Shown here: one piece after another, positions 18,174 to 32,936 of the stretch
Layout: every line of letters begins with the position of its first letter
Numbering within the stretch: the stretch's first letter is position 1
NCBI RefSeq assembly: GCF_009931435.1
Contig: NZ_CP043414.1
Direction: 5' to 3' (one strand)
Origin: Escherichia coli
Lineage (GTDB): Bacteria > Pseudomonadota > Gammaproteobacteria > Enterobacterales > Enterobacteriaceae
DNA length: 64,000 nucleotides
Made by a program: the position numbers and the translations under genes
The notes under the pieces: generated by a model
Seen by the model: the letters and a program-made list of their open reading frames with translations, nothing else
Database searches by the model: none
What the model was told of the DNA's origin: nothing

Positions 18174-19169
18174 ATGAACGATAACGTTTTGCTCATAGGA
18201 GCTTCCGGATTCGTAGGAACCCGACTACTTGAAACGGCAATTGCTGACTTTAATATCAAGAACCTGGACAAACAGCAGAGCCACTTTTATCCAGAAATCA
18301 CACAGATTGGCGATGTTCGTGATCAACAGGCACTCGACCAGGCGTTAGCCGGTTTTGACACTGTTGTACTACTGGCAGCGGAACACCGCGATGACGTCAG
18401 CCCTACTTCTCTCTATTATGATGTCAACGTTCAGGGTACCCGCAATGTGCTGGCGGCCATGGAAAAAAATGGCGTTAAAAATATCATCTTTACCAGTTCC
18501 GTTGCTGTTTATGGTTTGAACAAACACAACCCTGACGAAAACCATCCACACGATCCTTTCAACCACTACGGCAAAAGTAAGTGGCAGGCAGAGGAAGTGC
18601 TGCGTGAATGGTATAACAAAGCACCAACAGAACGTTCATTAACTATCATCCGTCCTACCGTTATCTTCGGTGAACGCAACCGCGGTAACGTCTATAACTT
18701 GCTGAAACAGATCGCTGGCGGCAAGTTTATGATGGTGGGCGCAGGGACTAACTATAAGTCCATGGCTTATGTTGGAAACATTGTTGAGTTTATCAAGTAC
18801 AAACTGAAGAATGTTGCCGCAGGTTATGAGGTTTATAACTACGTTGATAAGCCAGACCTGAACATGAACCAGTTGGTTGCTGAAGTTGAACAAAGCCTGA
18901 ACAAAAAGATCCCTTCTATGCACTTGCCTTACCCACTAGGAATGCTGGGTGGATATTGCTTTGATATCCTGAGCAAAATTACGGGCAAAAAATACGCTGT
19001 CAGCTCAGTGCGCGTGAAAAAATTCTGCGCAACAACACAGTTTGACGCAACGAAAGTGCATTCTTCAGGTTTTGTGGCACCGTATACGCTGTCGCAAGGT
19101 CTGGATCGAACACTGCAGTATGAATTCGTTCATGCCAAAAAAGACGACATAACGTTTGTTTCTGAGTAA
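18174..19169 (+). CDS. gne: NAD-dependent sugar epimerase, Gne/Gnu-like (UDP-GlcNAc/GalNAc or GlcNAc-PP-Und 4-epimerase family)
   Basis: 331-aa ORF; Rossmann motif LLIGASGFVGTRL; located between wcaM and galF, where Gne/Gnu (Z3206-type) genes occur in some E. coli serogroups. Confidence 0.7.
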   Translation: MNDNVLLIGASGFVGTRLLETAIADFNIKNLDKQQSHFYPEITQIGDVRDQQALDQALAGFDTVVLLAAEHRDDVSPTSLYYDVNVQGTRNVLAAMEKNGVKNIIFTSSVAVYGLNKHNPDENHPHDPFNHYGKSKWQAEEVLREWYNKAPTERSLTIIRPTVIFGERNRGNVYNLLKQIAGGKFMMVGAGTNYKSMAYVGNIVEFIKYKLKNVAAGYEVYNYVDKPDLNMNQLVAEVEQSLNKKIPSMHLPYPLGMLGGYCFDILSKITGKKYAVSSVRVKKFCATTQFDATKVHSSGFVAPYTLSQGLDRTLQYEFVHAKKDDITFVSE

Positions 19170-19411: not shown

Positions 19412-20305
19412 ATGACGAATTTAAAAGCAGTTATACCGGTAGCAGGTCTTGGGATGCATATGTTGCCTGCCACTAAGGCGATTCCCAAAGAGATGCTACC
19501 GATCGTCGACAAGCCAATGATTCAGTACATTGTTGACGAGATTGTGGCTGCAGGGATCAAAGAAATCCTCCTGGTAACTCACGCGTCCAAGAACGCAGTC
19601 GAAAACCACTTCGACACCTCTTATGAATTAGAATCTCTCCTTGAACAGCGCGTGAAGCGTCAACTGCTGGCGGAAGTACAGTCTATCTGTCCGCCGGGCG
19701 TGACCATTATGAACGTGCGTCAGGGCGAACCTTTAGGTTTAGGCCACTCCATTTTGTGTGCACGACCCGCCATTGGTGACAACCCATTTGTCGTGGTATT
19801 GCCGGACGTTGTGATCGACGACGCCAGTGCCGACCCGCTGCGCTACAACCTTGCTGCCATGATTGCACGTTTCAACGAAACGGGCCGCAGCCAGGTGCTG
19901 GCAAAACGTATGCCGGGTGACCTCTCTGAATACTCCGTCATTCAGACTAAAGAGCCGCTGGATCGTGAAGGTAAAGTCAGCCGTATTGTTGAATTCATAG
20001 AAAAGCCGGATCAGCCGCAGACGCTGGACTCAGACATCATGGCCGTTGGTCGATATGTGCTTTCTGCCGATATTTGGCCGGAACTTGAACGCACTCAGCC
20101 TGGTGCATGGGGGCGTATTCAGCTGACTGATGCCATTGCCGAACTGGCGAAAAAACAGTCCGTTGATGCCATGCTGATGACTGGTGACAGCTATGACTGC
20201 GGTAAAAAAATGGGTTATATGCAGGCGTTTGTGAAGTATGGACTGCGCAACCTCAAAGAAGGGGCGAAGTTCCGCAAAGGCATTGAGAAACTGTTAAGCG
20301 AATAA
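19412..20305 (+). CDS. galF: UTP-glucose-1-phosphate uridylyltransferase paralogue GalF
   Basis: 297-aa ORF; N-terminus [30 protein letters not shown] typical of GalF/GalU. Confidence 0.9.
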
Positions 20306-20565
20306 TGAAAATCTGACCGAATGTGACGGTTGGCAAGGAAACTATAACAGCAGTGAAGATTCGTGGCGAAAGTAATTTGTTGCGAATATTCCTGCCGTTA
20401 TTTTGTATAAACAATCAGAATAACAAATAGTTAGCAATAGGCTTTTCGTCAAAGTTTTCCTGGATTTTCCTTGTTTCCAGAACGGATTGGTAAGACAATT
20501 AGCGTTTGAGTTTCGAGGGAGATGCAGCAATGTCTCTCAGTAACAGTACGCAATATCAATGAGTT

Positions 20566-20604
20566 CAGTGCACTGGTAGCTGTTAAGCCAGGGGCGGTAG
20601 CGTG
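20566..20604 (+). promoter_or_regulatory. 39-bp JUMPstart element containing the ops site (RfaH-dependent antitermination signal)
   Basis: cagtgcactggtagctgttaagccaggggcggtagcgtg; ops core ggcggtagcgtg at 20593-20604. Confidence 0.8.
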
Positions 20605-20614
20605 GATTGATGGA

Positions 20615-21436
20615 ATGAAAAATAAGTGCCCACGAATTGCAGTAATAATGTCGGTTTATATTAATGATAAATTTAATGAGTTTAAAGAGGCTTTTGACAG
20701 TATTATTAATCAAACATACTCTAACTTTGTTTTCTTTATTTATGCCGATGGCAAGATAAATCCAGATATTGAAAGTTTTTTGCAAAATTATAATTCGCAA
20801 CATGTGATTTTCATTAGAAGTGAAAAAAATAAGGGATTAGCTTATGCTTTGAATAAATTAATATCAGTGGCGCTAGTTAATAATGAATTTGATTTTATTG
20901 CCAGAATGGATGCTGATGATATAAGTTTAGAAGATAGATTTCAACGACAAATAGATTTTTTTATGGCTAACCCTGAGTTAGATGTTGTTGGTGGGTTGTG
21001 TCAAGAGTTTGGTGGTGAGTCAGCAAGAGAAAAATGCAAGATCTATTTTACAGATGAAGCCATTAAAAACAATGCCTTTAAAAAATGTCCTTTCGTTCAT
21101 CCAACCGTGATGTTTAAATCGTCTGTATTTAATAACGGGATGCGATACCCTGAAAATCAGCCACTGACAGAAGATATGTGCTTATGGCTCGAGTTAATAT
21201 CCGCGAATAAAAAGTTTGCAAATATTGACTCCGTTCTTCTAAAGTACAGAATTAATGAGCAGACGCTAAAAAGAAGAAGAGGTTTGAATAAGGCTGTAAC
21301 CGAATTATCCACAAGATTGTATTACGCCAAGAAACTTAAAATGCTTAGCGTACGGAATTTGTTATATATATTAATCCATTTTGGTGTCAGAGTCCTTCCT
21401 TCAAATATATTTAAACTTGTACATAAGTTAAATTAA
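20615..21436 (+). CDS. O-antigen glycosyltransferase, GT2 family
   Basis: ORF 20522..21436, with the likely start (MKNKCPRIAVIMSVYIND) at 20615 just after ops; DADD motif (ARMDADDISLEDRF); AT-rich. Confidence 0.7.
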   Translation: MKNKCPRIAVIMSVYINDKFNEFKEAFDSIINQTYSNFVFFIYADGKINPDIESFLQNYNSQHVIFIRSEKNKGLAYALNKLISVALVNNEFDFIARMDADDISLEDRFQRQIDFFMANPELDVVGGLCQEFGGESAREKCKIYFTDEAIKNNAFKKCPFVHPTVMFKSSVFNNGMRYPENQPLTEDMCLWLELISANKKFANIDSVLLKYRINEQTLKRRRGLNKAVTELSTRLYYAKKLKMLSVRNLLYILIHFGVRVLPSNIFKLVHKLN

Positions 21437-21437
21437 A

Positions 21438-23204
21438 ATGAATAAAACTGTTTATACATATGATGTATGGGATACTATTTTAAAACGTCATTGTTTACCA
21501 TCATATACGTTAGAGGTTTCGTTGTACTGGCTACTTTTGTATCTTGGAAAACCTGAGAAACATAAGGATGTGTATAAAAAAGTAAAAGCACTGGAGAGTG
21601 ATTTTTTTAATCGAAAAGAAGAATATTTTATTGAAGAGCTTATTGTTGGGATATTAATTGAAAATAATTTAATGAATGGATTTTGCAATAACTCTGTGAC
21701 TGCTGCTTGGGAACAAATATATTATTTCGTAGAGAGAAATTGTACATATAAAAATAAAGAGGTTATAGAGTTAATTGGGAGTGACTATGGGGACAAATTA
21801 TTTATTTCTGATTTTTATACTGACTCCAGTTTCATAAAGAAATTGCTACACCACCACCAAGTATCGGTTTTAGATGGTGTGACGTCAGCTGAGTATGGCG
21901 TCAGTAAGCATATGGGTTCATTGTATGAAAAAATAGAACTATTGAAGCAAAGGAAATGGATCCATACTGGAGATAATGAATTAGCTGATATAAAAATGGC
22001 AAAGCGTGCAGGTGCCCAAGTTAGACTTATAAAATCCAAAAAGAAGAAAATAAATAAGTTAAAAATAAAAAATGACTATGAGCGGTTAGCATTTATTATT
22101 TTGTCCTTTAGCCTGTTTATATTAAAAACTTCCAGAAAGAAAAAGTGCAATAAGATCTACTTTTTTACAAGGGAGGGGGTTTTTTTCAAAAAAAACTTTG
22201 ATCTTCTACTAAACCAAATACCTAACATATTCCCATCTATAACTACGGAAATATTGCCAATCAGTCGAGTAGCCAGCTTAGCATTGAAGTTTAATGAGTC
22301 TGATGAATTTTTAGGATTTAATGATGCATTAACCCAGTATGGCTATGGAGTGTCTACGTTTCTTAGTTTCTTTCATCTTGATGATTGTTACTCCGAGCTC
22401 ACAACAAAGTATCATGATGTAAATGATTTATTATCTCACAGAAATGATCCTTTGGTAAAACAACTAATAAAAAGTATAGAGGATAAAAAAAAACGAACAG
22501 AAAATTTTCTTACATCCATTGAGTTCGATTCTGAGCCAAGTATCATCGTGGATATTGGTTGGCGGGGTAGCATCCAAGATAATTTAATGTCGCGGAAAAA
22601 TAATTATATTCAACATGGATGTTATCTCGGATTGTTTGATTTTTACCCAGGCCAGTCAGGTCAGAATAAATCATCTGTAATTTTTGATAACAACAGATTT
22701 AGACAAAAATGGACCATGAAAGGTGTAGCTTTTATGGAGACGGTTTTCAATGCTTTGGACGGAAGTGTTGTCGATTATGTAAACAATAAACCGAAAAGAA
22801 AAGAAAATTACGCTGAGATAGAAAATTCAAAACATTTAATAGTTATGCAAGATGCTATCATTGAGGAATTTATGAATCTATCTATTATGTTAAAAGAGGG
22901 AAAGTTAAATATCAATGATATTGAAAGATTAGCTATTGAAAGTTACAAAAAAATAGTAACTAACCCATCTAAAGAAATAGCTGATTTTTATGTTGGCAGT
23001 ATCCAAAATGAAAGCTTCGGTTTGAATGATTTTATCGACAAAGAATTTAACATTAGCGCAGTAGATGTTTTCCGAAGTTTTTTTTCTAAAAGTAAAAGAA
23101 ATGAAATAAGAATAAAATTGCATAGAAATGGATGGCGTGAGTCGATACTTAAATCCTCTAAAGTATCGCTGAGCGCAAAATTATGTTCACTTTTAATTAG
23201 ATAA
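21438..23204 (+). CDS. hypothetical 588-aa O-antigen cluster protein; HAD-like N-terminal region plus uncharacterised C-terminal domain
   Basis: Long AT-rich ORF; N-terminus YDVWDTIL and IHTGDNELADIKMAKRAGAQ loosely resemble HAD motifs I and III/IV; hydrophobic segment near residue 215; no family recognised for residues 230-588. Confidence 0.55.
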   Translation: MNKTVYTYDVWDTILKRHCLPSYTLEVSLYWLLLYLGKPEKHKDVYKKVKALESDFFNRKEEYFIEELIVGILIENNLMNGFCNNSVTAAWEQIYYFVERNCTYKNKEVIELIGSDYGDKLFISDFYTDSSFIKKLLHHHQVSVLDGVTSAEYGVSKHMGSLYEKIELLKQRKWIHTGDNELADIKMAKRAGAQVRLIKSKKKKINKLKIKNDYERLAFIILSFSLFILKTSRKKKCNKIYFFTREGVFFKKNFDLLLNQIPNIFPSITTEILPISRVASLALKFNESDEFLGFNDALTQYGYGVSTFLSFFHLDDCYSELTTKYHDVNDLLSHRNDPLVKQLIKSIEDKKKRTENFLTSIEFDSEPSIIVDIGWRGSIQDNLMSRKNNYIQHGCYLGLFDFYPGQSGQNKSSVIFDNNRFRQKWTMKGVAFMETVFNALDGSVVDYVNNKPKRKENYAEIENSKHLIVMQDAIIEEFMNLSIMLKEGKLNINDIERLAIESYKKIVTNPSKEIADFYVGSIQNESFGLNDFIDKEFNISAVDVFRSFFSKSKRNEIRIKLHRNGWRESILKSSKVSLSAKLCSLLIR

Positions 23205-23207
23205 AAT

Positions 23208-24080
23208 ATGAATATTTCAGTAATAATTTGTTGCTATAACTCAGAAAATAGAATCGTAAACACCCTTTTTCATCTTTCACAATGTGTATCTCTATCCAAG
23301 GGGTTAATTGACGAGATTATTCTTGTTGACAATAACTCATCTGATGAAACTGTTAAAACAGCTGAGGATTTTTGGCGTAATACGGGGGAGGAGCAAATCT
23401 TTAAAATTGTTTTTGAATCGATTCCGGGCCTTGTTCATGCTAGACGGCGAGGGCTGGACGAGTCCAAAAATGAGATTGTTGTTTTTTGTGATGATGATAA
23501 TTGGCTGGTACCATCTTATTTTACAAAACTAGAGAAATATTTTGAAAACAAACAAGTAGGCGCTGTCGGGGGACGCGGTATTCCTATTGCTAATACCGTT
23601 ATTCCTGAGTGGTTTTTTGAGAATCTGGATGCATATGCATGTTCTGCACAAACTTCTAACATGTTGTATGGTGCTAGCTTGGCTATTCGGTCTAGTATCT
23701 TAAAAAAATTTTATACGGATGCTTTATCAGTAAAGCTAAAGGGTAGAACAAAAGACAGTCTGGATTCTGGGGAAGATAACTTATTGTGTAATTTTGTCAA
23801 AAAACAAGGATACACTCTGATACCTGACAATACACCATTTTGCCATTTCATGGAAAGCAAGCGATTGGATGTCGATTATCTATATAAACTGGCTGAATCA
23901 TTTGGAAAAGCAACGGCATCAATGAAAAACAATTCCTTCACCACCGATTATGTATATTTGACAGCAAAAATGTTATTAGCTATATCTAGGATCTTCTCTA
24001 AAAAAAATAAAAAGATATATTTAAAACGTGAGATTTCCTTTCTCAGAGGTTATTTGAGGTTTAGAAAGGAATCGAAGTAA
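23208..24080 (+). CDS. O-antigen glycosyltransferase, GT2 family
   Basis: 290-aa ORF; classic GT2 N-terminus MNISVIICCYNSENRI ... ILVDNNSSDET ... FCDDDN. Confidence 0.75.
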   Translation: MNISVIICCYNSENRIVNTLFHLSQCVSLSKGLIDEIILVDNNSSDETVKTAEDFWRNTGEEQIFKIVFESIPGLVHARRRGLDESKNEIVVFCDDDNWLVPSYFTKLEKYFENKQVGAVGGRGIPIANTVIPEWFFENLDAYACSAQTSNMLYGASLAIRSSILKKFYTDALSVKLKGRTKDSLDSGEDNLLCNFVKKQGYTLIPDNTPFCHFMESKRLDVDYLYKLAESFGKATASMKNNSFTTDYVYLTAKMLLAISRIFSKKNKKIYLKREISFLRGYLRFRKESK

Positions 24081-25258
24081 TGAGAGGGGGAATGCTTGTA
24101 ATTGCGTGGTATTCTATTTTTCTGTTGATTTCAGCTACGGGCATGACCGGTCTAAATAAGCTGAGTACTGAAGCTATTCTGTGCTATATTGCATTTTTAT
24201 TCTGTTTTTTCTTTGGCATGATGTTAGGTGGTGTTTCGCTCCCAAACGGAATGAAAATGTTGCAACAGGAGCAAAAGATAAAGAAAAGGCATGCTTCTGC
24301 CATAGTTCTAATTTATTGCTTTTTTATTTTTTATTCTTTAATTGCTCTTTTAAATATATATTATTTCAATAAGGTTGATCTATCATCTTATAGACAAGCA
24401 TTTTTTGATGGTTCAAGAGATAATGTTAAATACTTCTATGGCGTGTTTGGCTTTTACTTCTATTATTTACTTAGCCTGTTAGTATTCGCCTTAGTTCCTT
24501 ATACTATTATAACGAACAGCAAAAAGACTATTTCATTATGTTTCTTTGCCTTGCTGCTATACGATATTATTTTCCTTTCAAGAACTGGTGTTTATTACTT
24601 TATATTATCTTATATAGTATCGAGTATTCTTCTCAAGAAAGGAATCAAGAAAATTATAATTGTAGGGATGGTTGCCTTATTATTCTCATTGATAATGAGT
24701 TACACAAGGGATATGAAGAGTGACATCATTGGTACATTATTTAGCTCAATTATAAATTATCATATAGCTCCGTTTGTCTTGTTTGATGAAAATATAATAT
24801 CAAATCATTTGATTAAATATAATGGGGCTGGCTTGGCATCGTTGGGGATATATAATATCATTTTTTATCCCATTGATTCGTCTATCATGTCATCAATAAA
24901 CGATTTTAGAGCACAGTTGAATGAATTCTATGATTTGGGAGTAAATCGTTATTTGCCATATAATGCCTATTATACTTCTTTGGGTGGGGTATATATAGAT
25001 AGCGGCCTGATTGGTAGCATGATGGTTAGTTTTATGACTGGTTTTATTATTGTCGGAATCGAGAAGAGTGCTTTTAAATCAACTAAGTTCTTAGTCTCTT
25101 CTGTGTTTTTTACTACATTATGTATGGAATCTATATTTTCCCCAATAACACTAAATATTTTTGCCTTTACAATAATTGTCTACTTAGTTGTTTTGATGGT
25201 CCTTAAATATGAAAATAGCGATGATAATACCATCTTTAAAAAATACCGCGCCAAATAA
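24080..25258 (+). CDS. wzy: putative O-antigen polymerase
   Basis: 392-aa highly hydrophobic, Phe/Ile/Tyr-rich multi-TM ORF inside the O-antigen cluster; assignment by elimination (wzx is the other polytopic protein). Confidence 0.55.
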   Translation: MRGGMLVIAWYSIFLLISATGMTGLNKLSTEAILCYIAFLFCFFFGMMLGGVSLPNGMKMLQQEQKIKKRHASAIVLIYCFFIFYSLIALLNIYYFNKVDLSSYRQAFFDGSRDNVKYFYGVFGFYFYYLLSLLVFALVPYTIITNSKKTISLCFFALLLYDIIFLSRTGVYYFILSYIVSSILLKKGIKKIIIVGMVALLFSLIMSYTRDMKSDIIGTLFSSIINYHIAPFVLFDENIISNHLIKYNGAGLASLGIYNIIFYPIDSSIMSSINDFRAQLNEFYDLGVNRYLPYNAYYTSLGGVYIDSGLIGSMMVSFMTGFIIVGIEKSAFKSTKFLVSSVFFTTLCMESIFSPITLNIFAFTIIVYLVVLMVLKYENSDDNTIFKKYRAK

Positions 25259-26234
25259 TATAGCCCTTTCAATATGTGAAGGGGCAAGGAAGCATGGTGT
25301 CAATATAGATATTTATTATCTTGATGAAATTGTAGAGTTGGATATAGACGAGTCAGAACTGAATATAAATAGGCTAAATGATAGAACCATTTTAAACAGT
25401 TATGATATTGTTCACTCTCATGGCTTAAGACCCGATGTTATTAATTGTAAGACCAGCAAAAATGTCATTAATGTAAGTACGCTTCATAGTTTTATTTTAG
25501 ATGATCTTAAGAATAAATATGGAATAAAAGGATATCTGATCGCTTTTGCTTGGCTTAAATTATTAAAGCGATTTGATTCATGTATTGCAATTAGTGAGGC
25601 GACTAAACGGTTTTATGTTAAACATGGTCTTAAATGCCACCATATATATAATGGAATCGACTTTCCTGACATCGAATTATATCAAGATAACTCAAGGCTA
25701 AATAACGGCAAAATAAATATAGTATCGATCGCGCATCTGGAAAAAATAAAAGGCTTAGAGCAACTCCTATATCTAGCCGCGGAGCGAGAAGAGTTCCATG
25801 TTCATATAATTGGTGAAGGAACTTACCGTGGGAAATTAACAAATATTATTGATAAGTTTGATTTATCTCAGCGTGTAACTTTGCATGGATATATATCAAA
25901 TGCGAGTTCTATGTTGGGGAAATTTGATGTTTATGTGCAACCATCTAAAAGTGAGGGGTTTGGCATTGCAGTCATTGAAGCTCTTGTAAATAAAATCCCA
26001 ACAGTTTGCTCAGACATTGAAGTGTTCAGAGAGTTATTTGGCTCAGGAGAAGTTGAATTTTTCAAGTTAGACGATATTAATTCACTTTACGATGCAATTT
26101 CAAGTGCATTAACCAAGACAGATATGTCTCGAGATGCAAGTGCCACAGCGATAAGCCAAAAATTTTCTTCAGAAGTGATGTCATTGAACTATTTAAGTTG
26201 GTATAAAAAATTATATGAAGAAAGAAATTTATAA
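25209..26234 (+). CDS. O-antigen glycosyltransferase, GT4 family
   Basis: 341-aa ORF; GT4 E-x7-E region (SKSEGFGIAVIEALVNKIPTVCSDIEVFRELF). Confidence 0.75.
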   Translation: MKIAMIIPSLKNTAPNNIALSICEGARKHGVNIDIYYLDEIVELDIDESELNINRLNDRTILNSYDIVHSHGLRPDVINCKTSKNVINVSTLHSFILDDLKNKYGIKGYLIAFAWLKLLKRFDSCIAISEATKRFYVKHGLKCHHIYNGIDFPDIELYQDNSRLNNGKINIVSIAHLEKIKGLEQLLYLAAEREEFHVHIIGEGTYRGKLTNIIDKFDLSQRVTLHGYISNASSMLGKFDVYVQPSKSEGFGIAVIEALVNKIPTVCSDIEVFRELFGSGEVEFFKLDDINSLYDAISSALTKTDMSRDASATAISQKFSSEVMSLNYLSWYKKLYEERNL

Positions 26235-27393
26235 ATATGGCACAATAATATTATGCTATGGAATTAACTTTATACTACCTATTCTTTTCTTTAAAGAAAT
26301 AAGTTTAATATTATCTCCAATAGTATTATCATCATTTTTCTTTGTTTTGGCATTGCTAATGTATTGTCAATTCATTGTTGAATACGGGTTGCAAATATCA
26401 TTATTAAGAAAGTTAAATGAAAATAAGAGTGATTTAAGTCGGCTTTTATCTACTATTCTTGGACTAAAAGTAATACTATTCGTCCTATGCGCAGTATTCA
26501 TTTATTGTATTTTGCTATATAATAATGAAGTTATATTTTTTATACTTGTTTTCATTCTGCTAGGAAACGTATTCTCATGCCAGTTCCTCTATCAAGTAGT
26601 TGATCAGCTCCATTTTTTTTATGTATTAAATTCGCTTGTTAAGCTAATTTTCATACCCCTCATTTTTATCAATGATAATTATATCTATCTGATGATATGT
26701 TATAGTTGTTTCAATATCCTACCTAACTTAGCTGCACTTGCTTATTTTTTATATAAGAATAAAGTTAAGGTTGTAAAAGTTCCTGCTTGTGAAATTTATA
26801 ATTTATCTAAGGAATGTTTTAGCTATTTTATCTCGAATATTTCGATAACATTATACACTAATTTTTATCAGATCTTATTAGGCATTATATCGCCCGCTTA
26901 TCTGGCCGCGTATGCATTAAGTGACAAAATTATTAGGGGGATCGTGTCAGGGAATTATGTGTTTATACAGATAGTACAAGTACAATACTTAAATGATGAA
27001 TCAAAGTTCATCAATGGTACATGGAAAACGATTGTTTCATTATTATTACTGGGGGGGATGGAGTTTTTATTTATTTTCTTTGGAGCGGATTTTTTCTCTC
27101 GTTATTTATTCCCTACAATATCTTTACTGCCAATTTTTCTAAAACTAATGTCATTGCTAATTGTTGTTATCTTGTTGAGTAACTTTTTTGCAATGGTTTA
27201 TCTTCCGTGTTCAGGCAATACTTTATTCCTCTCACGTGTTCTGATTTTTGTTTCTATTGTGTCCGTAGTAGTTGCCCCGATACTAATATGGCTCTATGCA
27301 GGTTATGGTGCAGTCATTTCCGCTATATTTTCAGAGTTATTAGTTCTGATTTTATGCTATGGTTTATATTTGAAATTAAAACACAAACTCTAA
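26215..27393 (+). CDS. wzx: putative O-antigen flippase
   Basis: 392-aa polytopic membrane ORF, about 12 predicted TM segments, AT-rich. Confidence 0.65.
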   Translation: MKKEIYKYGTIILCYGINFILPILFFKEISLILSPIVLSSFFFVLALLMYCQFIVEYGLQISLLRKLNENKSDLSRLLSTILGLKVILFVLCAVFIYCILLYNNEVIFFILVFILLGNVFSCQFLYQVVDQLHFFYVLNSLVKLIFIPLIFINDNYIYLMICYSCFNILPNLAALAYFLYKNKVKVVKVPACEIYNLSKECFSYFISNISITLYTNFYQILLGIISPAYLAAYALSDKIIRGIVSGNYVFIQIVQVQYLNDESKFINGTWKTIVSLLLLGGMEFLFIFFGADFFSRYLFPTISLLPIFLKLMSLLIVVILLSNFFAMVYLPCSGNTLFLSRVLIFVSIVSVVVAPILIWLYAGYGAVISAIFSELLVLILCYGLYLKLKHKL

Positions 27394-27415
27394 CTATTAA
27401 CGTAGAATAATTAAA

Positions 27416-27856
27416 ATGAATTTATTGATTGTTTTTTGCTTTTATATTTCGGTTCTGCGTAGTAATAAAATAAGTGTATTTAAATTAATCACTATCACAA
27501 CTGTCTTGATTGTATATGTATTCTGGCTAATAGCCGACAGTTTTACTGGCGTTGGGATAAATGATTCAGTTTATTTCCATATGTTAATGCCGCATGAGGG
27601 GGCATCGGTTGAAAATTTAACATATTATGGATTTCTGATTGTAAGCCTTGTTATTTCAATTTTCTTGATTGCTTATGTTTCTTGGAAAAAGAAGCATAAT
27701 AGAGGATTAAGTAAAAATTACTCTTTTTACGTACTCTTCGCTATTGTATTAGTTACTCCATTTATGCGTAATTTCCTGGGGTCAATTAACAATTTAATTT
27801 CCGAACAGTTTTCTACTGAAGATATAAGTAAAGAGTATGTAATCAATAGTAGGTGA
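27416..27856 (+). pseudogene. 3'-truncated membrane-protein gene, last gene of the O-antigen cluster, interrupted by IS1
   Basis: 146-codon ORF with N-terminal TM helices; its stop codon TGA (27854-27856) lies inside the IS1 left terminal repeat. Confidence 0.6.
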
Positions 27857-27906
27857 TGCTGCCAACTTACTGATTTAGTGTATGATGGTGTTTTTGAGGT
27901 GCTCCA

Positions 27907-28182
27907 GTGGCTTCTGTTTCTATCAGCTGTCCCTCCTGTTCAGCTACTGACGGGGTGGTGCGTAACGGCAAAAGCACCGCCGGACATCAGCGCTATCTCT
28001 GCTCTCACTGCCGTAAAACATGGCAACTGCAGTTCACTTACACCGCTTCTCAACCCGGTACGCACCAGAAAATCATTGATATGGCCATGAATGGCGTTGG
28101 ATGCCGGGCAACCGCCCGCATTATGGGCGTTGGCCTCAACACGATTTTCCGCCATTTAAAAAACTCAGGCCGCAGTCGGTAA
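27907..28182 (+). CDS. insA: IS1 InsA
   Basis: 91-aa [26 protein letters not shown]..., zinc-finger/HTH InsA. Confidence 0.9.
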
Positions 28183-28604
28183 CCTCGCGCATACAGCCGG
28201 GCAGTGACGTCATCGTCTGCGCGGAAATGGACGAACAGTGGGGCTATGTCGGGGCTAAATCGCGCCAGCGCTGGCTGTTTTACGCGTATGACAGGCTCCG
28301 GAAGACGGTTGTTGCGCACGTATTCGGTGAACGCACTATGGCGACGCTGGGGCGTCTTATGAGCCTGCTGTCACCCTTTGACGTGGTGATATGGATGACG
28401 GATGGCTGGCCGCTGTATGAATCCCGCCTGAAGGGAAAGCTGCACGTAATCAGCAAGCGATATACGCAGCGAATTGAGCGGCATAACCTGAATCTGAGGC
28501 AGCACCTGGCACGGCTGGGACGGAAGTCGCTGTCGTTCTCAAAATCGGTGGAGCTGCATGACAAAGTCATCGGGCATTATCTGAACATAAAACACTATCA
28601 ATAA
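28101..28604 (+). CDS. insB: IS1 InsB (expressed as InsAB' by -1 frameshift)
   Basis: 167-aa ORF overlapping insA in the -1 frame, ending ...HYLNIKHYQ. Confidence 0.9.
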
Positions 28605-28990
28605 GTTGGAGTCATTACCGGTTACGAGTAGTGGCATCTGGATTTGATGTGTGTAACATTAATGAGTCGTTAATATTAGCTAGAGTTGGTGATAATATGT
28701 TGGCTAGGCGAAAAGGGCTGAGGTATATAAAAAGTGAATTCCAACTTTATCGGCTAAAAGTTAAACTTGGTTTGCAGTCACATATATCTGGATTCTGCAT
28801 TTTGTTAGTAAGAAGCATTCCGCGATTACTCCCTCTAAAGGTCTTAAAAATTATTTACCAATATATTCGGAAGTAATTATATAATAATTCTGAAGATTGC
28901 ACTCTTATTTTTTCTTAGTTGTATCTTTGTATGTTAACATTACGTTTAAACCGAACCGCTAAGACGGTAATTTCGTGACAGGAGTAAACA

Positions 28991-30397
28991 ATGTCAAAGC
29001 AACAGATCGGCGTAGTCGGTATGGCAGTGATGGGGCGCAACCTTGCGCTCAACATCGAAAGCCGTGGTTATACCGTCTCTATTTTCAACCGTTCCCGTGA
29101 AAAGACGGAAGAAGTGATTGCCGAAAATCCAGGCAAGAAACTGGTTCCTTACTATACGGTGAAAGAGTTTGTTGAATCTCTGGAAACGCCTCGTCGCATC
29201 CTGTTAATGGTGAAAGCAGGTGCTGGCACGGATGCTGCTATTGATTCCATCAAGCCGTACCTCGATAAAGGTGACATCATCATTGATGGTGGTAATACAT
29301 TCTTCCAGGACACCATTCGCCGTAACCGTGAGCTTTCTGCCGAAGGCTTTAACTTCATCGGTACCGGTGTTTCCGGTGGTGAAGAGGGCGCGCTGAAAGG
29401 GCCTTCCATCATGCCTGGTGGGCAGAAAGAAGCCTATGAACTGGTTGCGCCGATCCTGACCAAAATCGCAGCCGTTGCTGAAGATGGCGAACCGTGCGTT
29501 ACCTATATTGGTACCGATGGCGCAGGTCACTATGTGAAGATGGTTCACAACGGTATTGAATATGGCGATATGCAGCTGATTGCTGAAGCCTATTCTCTGC
29601 TTAAAGGTGGCCTGAACCTCACTAACGAAGAACTGGCGCAGACCTTTACCGAGTGGAATAACGGTGAACTGAGTAGCTACCTGATCGACATCACCAAAGA
29701 CATCTTCACCAAAAAAGATGAAGACGGTAACTACCTGGTTGATGTGATTCTGGATGAAGCAGCAAACAAAGGTACCGGTAAATGGACCAGCCAGAGCGCG
29801 CTGGATCTCGGCGAACCGCTGTCGCTGATTACCGAGTCTGTGTTTGCACGTTATATCTCTTCTCTGAAAGAGCAGCGTGTTGCCGCATCTAAAGTTCTCT
29901 CTGGCCCGCAAGCGCAGCCAGCTGGCGACAAAGGTGAGTTCATCGAAAAAGTTCGTCGTGCTCTGTATCTGGGCAAAATCGTTTCTTACGCTCAGGGCTT
30001 CTCTCAGCTGCGTGCTGCGTCTGAAGAGTACAACTGGGATCTGAACTACGGCGAAATCGCGAAAATTTTCCGTGCTGGCTGCATCATCCGTGCGCAGTTC
30101 CTGCAGAAAATCACCGATGCTTATGCCGAAAATCCGCAGATCGCTAACCTGCTGCTGGCTCCGTACTTCAAGCAAATTGCCGATGACTACCAGCAGGCGC
30201 TGCGTGATGTCGTTGCTTATGCAGTACAGAACGGTATCCCGGTTCCGACCTTCGCCGCTGCGGTTGCCTATTACGATAGCTACCGTGCCGCTGTTCTGCC
30301 TGCGAACCTGATCCAGGCACAGCGTGACTATTTCGGTGCACATACTTATAAGCGCATTGATAAAGAAGGTGTGTTCCATACTGAATGGCTGGATTAA
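28991..30397 (+). CDS. gnd: 6-phosphogluconate dehydrogenase, decarboxylating
   Basis: 468-aa [30 protein letters not shown]...; recognised as Gnd. Confidence 0.97.
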
Positions 30398-30636: not shown

Positions 30637-31812
<1,176 letters not shown>

Positions 31813-31955: not shown

Positions 31956-32936
31956 ATGATGAGAGTAGAAAATAATAATGTTTCTGGGCAAAACCATGAC
32001 CCGGAACAGATTGATTTGATTGATTTACTGGTGCAGTTGTGGCGTGGCAAGATGACAATTATCATCTCTGTCATTGTTGCTATTGCCCTGGCTATAGGGT
32101 ATCTGGCCGTTGCCAAAGAAAAGTGGACTTCCACAGCTATCGTTACTCAACCTGATGTGGGACAAATCGCTGGTTATAACAATGCCATAAATGTGATTTA
32201 TGGTTCGGCAGCGCCGAAAGTGTCTGAGATCCAGTCGATGTTAATTGGTCGTTTCAGCACGACATTTTCTGCATTAGCAGAAACGCTGGATAATCAGGAA
32301 GAACCTGAAAAACTGACCATTGAGCCTACCGTTAAAAATCAGTCATTACCTTTAGCGGTTTCTTATGTGGGTGAAACACCTGAAGGTGCGCAGAAACAGC
32401 TGGCGCAGTATATCCAGCAAGTTGACGACCAGGTAAATGAAGAACTGGAACAAGACCTGAAAGACAACATCGCGCTGCGTATGAAAAACTTGCAGGATTC
32501 TCTGAAGACGCAGGAAGTGGTCGCTCAAGAACAGAAAGATCTGCGTATCCGTCAGATTCAGGAAGCGTTGCAGTATGCGAATCAGGCGCAGGTGACAAAG
32601 CCGCAGATTCAACAGACACAGGACGTAACCCAGGATACTATGTTCCTTTTGGGGAGCGAAGCGCTGGAGTCGATGATTAAGCACGAAGCGACCCGTCCGT
32701 TGGTGTTCTCATCAAACTACTATCAGACTCGTCAAAACCTGCTGGATATCGACAATCTTGACGTTGATAAACTTGATATTCATGCTTACCGCTATGTAAT
32801 GAAACCGACGTTACCTATTCGTCGCGATAGCCCGAAGAAAGCAATTACCTTGATTCTGGCTGTGCTGCTGGGCGGTATGGTGGGCGCGGGGATTGTGTTG
32901 GGGCGTAACGCACTGCGTAATTACAACGCGAAGTAA
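31956..32936 (+). CDS. wzzB: O-antigen chain-length determinant (polysaccharide co-polymerase)
   Basis: ORF 31902..32936; likely start at the MMRVENNN methionines (31956/31959); N- and C-terminal TM segments flanking a coiled-coil-rich periplasmic domain. Confidence 0.9.
   Translation: MMRVENNNVSGQNHDPEQIDLIDLLVQLWRGKMTIIISVIVAIALAIGYLAVAKEKWTSTAIVTQPDVGQIAGYNNAINVIYGSAAPKVSEIQSMLIGRFSTTFSALAETLDNQEEPEKLTIEPTVKNQSLPLAVSYVGETPEGAQKQLAQYIQQVDDQVNEELEQDLKDNIALRMKNLQDSLKTQEVVAQEQKDLRIRQIQEALQYANQAQVTKPQIQQTQDVTQDTMFLLGSEALESMIKHEATRPLVFSSNYYQTRQNLLDIDNLDVDKLDIHAYRYVMKPTLPIRRDSPKKAITLILAVLLGGMVGAGIVLGRNALRNYNAK

Follow-up and report, generated by a model that had tools for sequence, protein, structure and literature searches.

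The stretch of DNA analyzed here, 64,000 nucleotides of Escherichia coli contig NZ_CP043414.1 (assembly GCF_009931435.1; hereafter, the window), carries between galF and gnd a gene cluster for O-antigen synthesis that is very probably the Wzx/Wzy-dependent cluster of E. coli O153, in the version that is recognized by typing PCR and not in the one known as the “O153/O178” cluster of group Gp11. The whole cluster (positions 20300 to 28990, 8691 nt) was used as a query against 5426 complete E. coli genomes, 76 of which matched at a coverage of at least 80%; among the 25 matches listed, the identity is about 100% and the match runs in one piece, with an IS1 element included. The O-unit genes alone are found in 77 to 79 genomes, invariably on the chromosome and invariably at an identity of at least 99%. 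The carriers include strain 2011C-4315 of the Centers for Disease Control and Prevention (CDC), published as O153:H2, which is about 100% identical to the window over the 8691 nt, and another carrier bears the name CE-O153H30.

The wzx primers for O153 and O178, taken from the supplement of PMC7403468 (Ludwig et al. 2020), were run as in silico PCR. The O153 pair anneals with zero mismatches at 26479 to 26499 and 27200 to 27219 and gives a product of 741 bp, which is the published size. The O153 cluster of DebRoy 2016 (strain 14097, KJ755551) was described as distinct from that of O178 and as PCR specific for clinical O153 isolates. A preliminary description of this DNA, made from the sequence alone, had held that the cluster matches none that can be named. 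This did not hold, because the cluster matches a serotyped O153:H2 strain at about 100% identity and contains perfect O153 wzx primer sites; an exact match to a characterized serogroup was thus found. The cluster is already catalogued, and nothing new is added here beyond corrections of its annotation and a warning about nomenclature.

The features of the locus and of its immediate surroundings are as follows:

18174..19169, + strand: gnu, intact, 331 aa, undecaprenyl-pyrophosphoryl-N-acetylglucosamine (Und-PP-GlcNAc) 4-epimerase; the product is identical to WP_000999466.1.
19412..20305, + strand: galF, left boundary of the O-antigen locus, from the RefSeq annotation of identical sequence.
20567..20605, + strand: JUMPstart, in which the ops site GGCGGTAGCGTG occupies 20593-20604; found by inspection of the sequence.
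20615..21436, + strand: first glycosyltransferase of family 2 (GT2, inverting), 273 aa; NCBIfam EpsE/TuaG-type GT2 matches.
21438..23204, + strand: predicted two-domain ribofuranosyltransferase, 588 aa (WP_001373134.1), from sequence and fold searches of the PDB.
23208..24080, + strand: second GT2 glycosyltransferase (inverting), 290 aa; NCBIfam HpsE-type GT2, RefSeq “glycosyltransferase family A/2 protein.”
24080..25258, + strand: wzy, O-antigen polymerase, 392 aa; TIGR04370 at 72 bits against a cutoff of 40, RefSeq “O-antigen polymerase.”
25209..26234, + strand: glycosyltransferase of family 4 (GT4, retaining), 341 aa; NCBIfam PglJ/BshA type, RefSeq “glycosyltransferase family 4 protein.”
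26215..27393, + strand: wzx, O-unit flippase, 392 aa; Pfam Polysacc_synt (E value, 3e-8), in an open reading frame (ORF) unbroken by a stop codon.
27416..27851, + strand: pseudogene with the first 145 codons of an OpgB/LtaS-like transferase (ORF 27416-27856, 146 codons); NCBIfam phosphoglycerol transferase I (E value, 1.5e-11).
27852..28619, + strand: IS1, 768 bp, with insA at 27907-28182 and insB' at 28101-28604; NCBIfam IS1 transposase matches.
28620..28876, + strand: 3' remnant (last 257 of 789 nt) of an EpsE-like GT2 gene from another O-antigen cluster, from the match to strain 99COLEC.
28991..30397, + strand: gnd, right boundary of the locus, from the RefSeq annotation.

The O-unit genes (20615 to 27851) have a G+C content of 0.317 and lie between galF (0.51 over 19412 to 20305) and gnd (0.505 over 28991 to 30397), with values of 0.414 in the spacer at 20306 to 20614, 0.536 in IS1 (27852 to 28619), and 0.35 at 28620 to 28879. 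The sharp drop in base composition reported in the preliminary description is borne out by these values, and so are the genes that it named and their order (a GT2 gene, the 588-aa ORF, a second GT2 gene, wzy, a GT4 gene, wzx, and a truncated membrane-protein gene). The flanks follow the order that is usual in E. coli: the colanic acid genes, gnu, and galF precede the O-unit genes, which are followed by gnd, ugd, wzzB, and the his operon. Both a flippase and a polymerase are encoded between galF and gnd, as expected for the Wzx/Wzy-dependent pathway, and no ORF for a wzm/wzt ABC transporter is present within 20300 to 28990; the family scans thus support the earlier reading of an AT-rich cluster of the Wzx/Wzy type. 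An NCBIfam scan of the seven O-unit ORFs, Gnu, and the two IS1 ORFs gave no match to enzymes of the rml, man, per, or fnl type, in agreement with the statement that dedicated nucleotide-sugar genes are lacking. The interval delineated in that description (20566 to 28619) also contains a complete IS1 and the JUMPstart/ops element, both absent from its list, and just beyond it lies the 257-nt 3' piece of a foreign GT2 gene. A scan for promoters and terminators gave no enrichment over shuffled sequence.

The 39-bp JUMPstart, with GGCGGTAGnnTG, precedes the first O-unit gene and holds the sole ops match in the 64-kb window; it is the predicted RfaH antitermination signal of the O-unit operon. Both ORF callers and RefSeq set the start of the first GT2 gene at 20522, and the JUMPstart consequently falls inside the ORF at 20522 to 21436. 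The true start is most likely 20615 and not 20522, since the longer call swallows the JUMPstart and since the ortholog in a cluster attributed to Salmonella enterica (described below) is 273 aa long, aligns over residues 1 to 273 at 68% identity, and has its own JUMPstart directly before it.

The second gene of the cluster encodes the 588-aa protein, which had been listed as unknown. Neither Pfam nor NCBIfam gave a significant family match for this protein. As a single sequence, it matches PDB entry 7SHG, “Ribofuranosyl transferase” of Thermobacillus composti, along almost its entire length (E value, 4e-14), and a profile of 25 homologues finds the same entry over the full length (profile residues 6 to 603) with an E value of 1.6e-85, together with the ribofuranosyltransferase part of Bcs3, the polymerase of Haemophilus influenzae type b (Hib), with an E value of 1e-31. 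The AlphaFold2 model of the protein has a predicted local distance difference test (pLDDT) score of 90.5 and a predicted template modeling (pTM) score of 0.91. When this model was searched with Foldseek, the top hit was 7SHG over the full length (TM score, 0.67; E value, 1e-22), followed by Bcs3 and then by HAD proteins that cover the N-terminal domain alone. The N terminus (roughly residues 1 to 200) corresponds to a HAD-type phosphoribosyl phosphatase (PRP), and the C terminus corresponds to a glycan phosphoribosyltransferase (gPRT). The HAD motifs W11, D12-T13, S124, K157, and G178-D179..D184 are invariant in the 25 homologues, and D9 is nearly so; in the C-terminal domain, T244-R-E-G247, S276-R277, and V371-D-I-G-W-R-G377..D381 (VDIGWRG-I-DN) are invariant.

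The match to 7SHG, the motifs, and the fold indicate that the 588-aa protein is, as far as sequence and model can predict it, a ribofuranosyltransferase that depends on phosphoribosyl pyrophosphate (PRPP), from which it follows that the O unit should contain ribofuranose (Ribf). This family of enzymes was reportedly characterized in 2022. In its mechanism, PRPP serves the gPRT domain as the donor of β-linked Ribf-5-phosphate, from which the PRP domain of the HAD type then strips the 5-phosphate (PMC11231755, PMC11127046). O153 is listed among the D-Ribf-containing antigens in the Liu 2019 review, according to which no nucleotide-activated Ribf pathway is known. WP_001373134.1, now annotated as “hypothetical protein,” can take the name PRPP-dependent ribofuranosyltransferase. 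One could argue that the protein is nothing but a HAD phosphatase joined to an unrelated C-terminal domain and serves, for example, in the processing of a precursor, given that Pfam and NCBIfam are silent and that databases list many of its homologues simply as “HAD family hydrolase.” This is highly improbable, since the profile match to 7SHG and the full-length fold span both domains, the motifs of the C-terminal domain are invariant across the family, and the gene belongs to the O-unit operon of a Ribf-containing serogroup.

The gene content suggests how the O unit may be assembled. Transcription would enter from the galF side via JUMPstart/ops. WecA would put N-acetylglucosamine (GlcNAc)-1-phosphate on undecaprenyl phosphate, and Gnu may epimerize part of the product to N-acetylgalactosamine (GalNAc). 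The two inverting GT2 enzymes, both putative β-galactosyltransferases, would add two β-galactoses (β-Gal), and the retaining GT4 enzyme, a putative α-GlcNAc transferase, would add α-GlcNAc. The 588-aa enzyme would transfer ribofuranose-5-phosphate from PRPP, its own HAD domain removing the 5-phosphate to leave β-Ribf. The resulting pentasaccharide would be flipped by Wzx and polymerized by Wzy, with WzzB setting the chain length. No genes of sugar-nucleotide pathways would be needed in the cluster, since the donors UDP-Gal, UDP-GlcNAc, and PRPP belong to housekeeping metabolism. The earlier statement that the cluster holds only glycosyltransferases for housekeeping sugars therefore stands as far as the probable donors are concerned, all three being of that kind, but it misses that the 588-aa enzyme is not of the Leloir type.

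The two GT2 enzymes, the GT4 enzyme, and the 588-aa enzyme would account for a five-sugar, Ribf-containing unit. The O153 unit, reportedly determined in 1994, is said to be ->2)-beta-Ribf-(1->4)-beta-Gal-(1->4)-alpha-GlcNAc-(1->4)-beta-Gal-(1->3)-alpha-GlcNAc-(1->, that is, two β-Gal, one α-GlcNAc, and one β-Ribf besides the initiating N-acetylhexosamine, which fits the gene content. The literature confirms that O153 contains Ribf (Liu 2019 review) and GlcNAc.

All six O-unit genes are uninterrupted ORFs (6/6), and hydropathy analysis of the wzy product revealed multiple hydrophobic segments. The Prokaryotic Genome Annotation Pipeline (PGAP) marks wzx as “partial, missing C-terminus” and calls a separate 144-aa hypothetical protein (WP_223216380.1) in most carriers, including SMS-3-5 and 2011C-4315. 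The annotation of TW11681 gives wzx as one full-length 392-aa flippase, WP_000711588.1, and the “partial” gene appears to be this same intact 392-aa gene. Moreover, a contig of Logan assembly SRR21204658 (L010, 8178 to 14962), attributed to Salmonella enterica via UniRef, where its 588-aa protein is U3GKQ0, holds six orthologous genes in the same order at 62 to 68% amino acid identity and a G+C content of 0.285. The wzx ortholog of this contig has 396 aa and is 66% identical over the full length. Unlike the window, the contig has only these six genes between galF and gnd, without gnu, the OpgB-like gene, IS1, and the GT2 remnant. The absence of the seventh gene there implies that six genes suffice, and the contig may represent an O antigen common to E. 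coli and Salmonella. We regard the O153 cluster as functional because its six ORFs are intact, wzx is full length, an O153:H2 strain has the identical sequence, and the Salmonella-attributed cluster consists of the same six genes.

The last gene of the cluster had been described as truncated, and this was confirmed: it is cut by IS1, and codons 1 to 145 are left. The intact version is a gene for a 738-aa sulfatase-family membrane transferase in strain TST3 (L003, 9769-11985), which is split in strain TBE6; identity of the pseudogene to the TST3 gene ends exactly at 27851. In the intact protein, Pfam places a Sulfatase domain at residues 153 to 433; the protein also has LtaS-type matches in the PDB and about 40% identity to enterobacterial “phosphoglycerol transferase I.” Compared with OpgB/LtaS transferases, the fragment in the window retains the membrane-anchor N terminus but is missing the Sulfatase catalytic domain. 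The 3' part of the OpgB-like gene is kept in just 2 of the 5426 complete genomes, those of TST3 and TBE6. In these two strains from Thailand (L003, 3821-4589 and 9769-11985; L002), IS1 stands at the left boundary of the cluster, at the equivalent of window position 20465, and ISAeme16 stands before gnd. In the two assemblies, a number of the cluster genes appear in split or fused form, which suggests sequencing indel errors.

The IS1 of the window has terminal inverted repeats that are readable in the sequence and is 99.3 to 99.7% identical to IS1 copies in other loci. Its flanks differ, the left one ending in tcaatagta and the right one beginning with ggttacgag, with no 9-bp target duplication; the element therefore marks a deletion or replacement junction and not a simple insertion. 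The GT2 remnant to its right matches, at 100% identity, the 3' end of a glycosyltransferase gene that is intact in 99COLEC (262 aa; L005, 11469-12257), where it adjoins another cluster truncated by IS1. On its own, the remnant ORF (28622 to 28873) gave no NCBIfam match, and it was identified only via the intact 99COLEC gene. The O locus of 99COLEC (L005, 8572-12257) is itself degraded; besides IS1 and the intact 262-aa GT2 gene, it contains fragments of ISAs1 and of a reverse transcriptase as well as a 3' piece of a GT4 gene.

Since the seventh gene is cut at 27851 and is followed by the IS1 junction and then by a foreign GT2 remnant, the present O153 cluster appears to be the product of an IS1-mediated deletion or replacement at its right end. 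Such an event would have destroyed the gene for a periplasmic OpgB/LtaS-like transferase and joined the cluster to the 3' portion of a GT2 gene of foreign origin. Iguchi et al. have described this process in other groups. It is conceivable, although we consider it rather unlikely, that the common O153 cluster is a degraded form and that the rare seven-gene version adds a phosphoglycerol-like substituent to the O153-type unit. If so, the OpgB-like decoration would amount to an O-antigen variant that typing schemes do not separate.

Several points weigh against the assignment to a functional O153 cluster. Of the detailed O153 unit that was matched to the genes, the literature confirms only Ribf and GlcNAc, and the linkages were assigned from the stereochemistry of the glycosyltransferase families. 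In most genomes, wzx is marked as partial by PGAP, though its ORF is uninterrupted. The O153 call is based on one serotyped carrier, the name of a second carrier, and the typing primers, and not on KJ755551 itself. SMS-3-5, which carries the identical cluster, was published as O19:H34. Lastly, the O153 reference of Iguchi was reported to be 99.9% identical to O178, so that “O153” names two unrelated clusters.

The last of these points leads to the most direct challenge, namely, that the window holds the Gp11 “O153/O178” cluster of Iguchi and encodes an O178-type antigen. DebRoy 2016 quotes the O153 and O178 clusters of Iguchi as 99.9% identical, and the Gnu and GalF alleles of the window are the same as those in the O178:H19 strain 2012C-4431. 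The locus of that strain, however, has a different gene set, encoding a 200-aa HAD protein, a 260-aa membrane protein, a 356-aa glycosyltransferase, Wzx, Wzy, a GT4, and a 279-aa GT2. At the nucleotide level, this locus shows no similarity to the window at 20610 to 28975, and the protein identity is at most 31%; its wzx is 27% identical to that of the window over 173 aa. The O178 primers match only the O178:H19 genome, with a product of the published size (495 bp), and have no site in the window. The comparison with 2012C-4431 and the in silico PCR thus ruled out the Gp11 identity, which we consider extremely improbable. In 2012C-4431 (NZ_CP024289; L009, 30545-31932), the cluster opens with a HAD-IB phosphatase, the 200-aa protein, and a multipass protein, the 260-aa one, that has no family match. 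The split HAD and membrane proteins may provide a different route for the addition of Ribf. The Liu 2019 review notes that the O153/O178 cluster has one glycosyltransferase fewer than expected. It is the wzx and wzy of 2012C-4431 that NCBI names “O153/O178 family”; these names belong to the other cluster, and in silico serotyping can be misled by them. O19, which was suspected at first because of the O19:H34 serotype of SMS-3-5, was rejected: the Liu 2019 review implies more than one L-rhamnose (L-Rha) in O19, which needs the dTDP-rhamnose rml genes, and the cluster is without rml. In SMS-3-5, the galF-gnd locus is the O153-type cluster without rml, and serotype and O-locus genotype disagree. 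The same strain is reported to have wbbY/wbbZ, the D-galactan II genes, elsewhere in the chromosome (PMC4237132).

The serotype of SMS-3-5 and its wbbYZ genes, together with the loss of the last gene to IS1 without a target duplication and the division of wzx by PGAP into a partial gene and a hypothetical protein (in SMS-3-5 and 2011C-4315, among others), could also be taken to mean that the cluster is a dead remnant, with IS1 damage and a broken wzx, and that its carriers are rough or owe their O antigen to a different locus. This is very unlikely. All six O-unit ORFs are uninterrupted, wzx is annotated at full length in TW11681 and aligns throughout with its Salmonella ortholog (66% identity), and the Salmonella-attributed cluster likewise lacks the seventh gene. 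Furthermore, the serotype O153:H2 was determined in a strain that has the identical sequence with its IS1, and the scarred form is maintained in 76 genomes at about 100% identity while their flanks differ.

Assignment to O153 leaves the first sugar to be considered. The RefSeq name of the Gnu product, WP_000999466.1, is N-acetyl-alpha-D-glucosaminyl-diphospho-undecaprenol 4-epimerase; NCBIfam gives only a generic short-chain dehydrogenase/reductase (SDR) epimerase. The gene is located upstream of galF, and in most E. coli carriers it accompanies the cluster. From an epimerase gene at this place, the preliminary description had proposed a GalNAc-initiated unit; the intact gene upstream was found, but the GalNAc start does not follow from it. 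If the unit did start with GalNAc by way of gnu, a gnu-positive antigen would differ from the published GlcNAc-only O153 unit. The reported O153 structure is said to have GlcNAc at the reducing end and no GalNAc. In favor of a GalNAc start, gnu is intact and forms part of the jointly transferred block of SMS-3-5, 2011C-4315, TW11681, and the window, and the Liu 2019 review infers such a start from gnu upstream of galF. The same review, however, lists O33, O55, O160, and O178, and not O153, as gnu-dependent mixed GlcNAc/GalNAc antigens. Moreover, gnu is absent in TST3 and TBE6 (where wcaM is truncated beside an IS630-family element) and in the Salmonella-attributed orthologous cluster, and the O178 cluster of 2012C-4431, which is unrelated, is accompanied by identical Gnu and GalF alleles, which also occur in 99COLEC. 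Because of these shared alleles, gnu may be a passenger inherited from a resident cluster that was replaced, and we consider a GalNAc start unlikely. The idea that gnu is the sole difference between O153 and O178 was dropped, since O153:H2 and O178:H19 strains share an identical Gnu beside different clusters.

A mismatch profile of the window against SMS-3-5 and 2011C-4315 revealed identity from about 17000 (in wcaM) to about 29500 (in gnd), save for 4 bases, and divergence outside these limits. This indicates that the block moves between lineages as one unit, and the scarred cluster would have spread by recombination as a piece of about 12.5 kb, from the 3' end of wcaM to the middle of gnd, with gnu and galF included. 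The sole differences from SMS-3-5, 2011C-4315, and TW11681 in the shared block, at 28113, 28149, 28152, and 28155, are all inside IS1; their position within 43 bases of the element suggests gene conversion between IS1 copies as the probable cause. The best-scoring genomes for the whole query, SBF22 and OX030728 (16039 versus 16028 bits), are presumably without these four differences. The colanic acid region of the window is just 99.3% identical to that of the best complete genome, and the host strain therefore lies outside the complete-genome set. Downstream, ugd (30646 to 31812) has 74% nucleotide identity to the ugd of the O178:H19 strain, with 95% for the neighboring gnd, and up to 98 mismatches per 500 nt separate the window from SMS-3-5 at 32000 to 32500. 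The surroundings of the O locus appear to be a mosaic of recombined alleles.

Among known systems, the closest is the O153 typing cluster (DebRoy 2016; Ludwig 2020), which has in common with the window the galF-gnd site, both wzx primers, and the 741-bp product. No difference was detected in these features; the flanks of the window, such as the colanic acid genes, point to a host strain outside the complete-genome set. The Gp11 cluster of 2012C-4431 resembles that of the window in its chromosomal site, its Gnu and GalF alleles, its use of Wzx and Wzy, and its assignment to a Ribf-containing serogroup (Liu 2019); it differs in having a separate small HAD protein and a 260-aa membrane protein in place of the fused 588-aa enzyme. 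That enzyme has the same arrangement, an N-terminal HAD domain and a C-terminal gPRT domain, as the dual-domain family that comprises T. composti 7SHG, ORF5 of Klebsiella pneumoniae O4, ORF7 of K. pneumoniae O7, and the Hib Bcs3 module, the prototypes of which use PRPP as the donor and form β-Ribf. The identity between 7SHG and the 588-aa protein is only about 22%. The characterized Klebsiella and Hib enzymes serve ABC-transporter pathways, whereas the predicted ribofuranosyltransferase of O153 sits in a Wzx/Wzy cluster.

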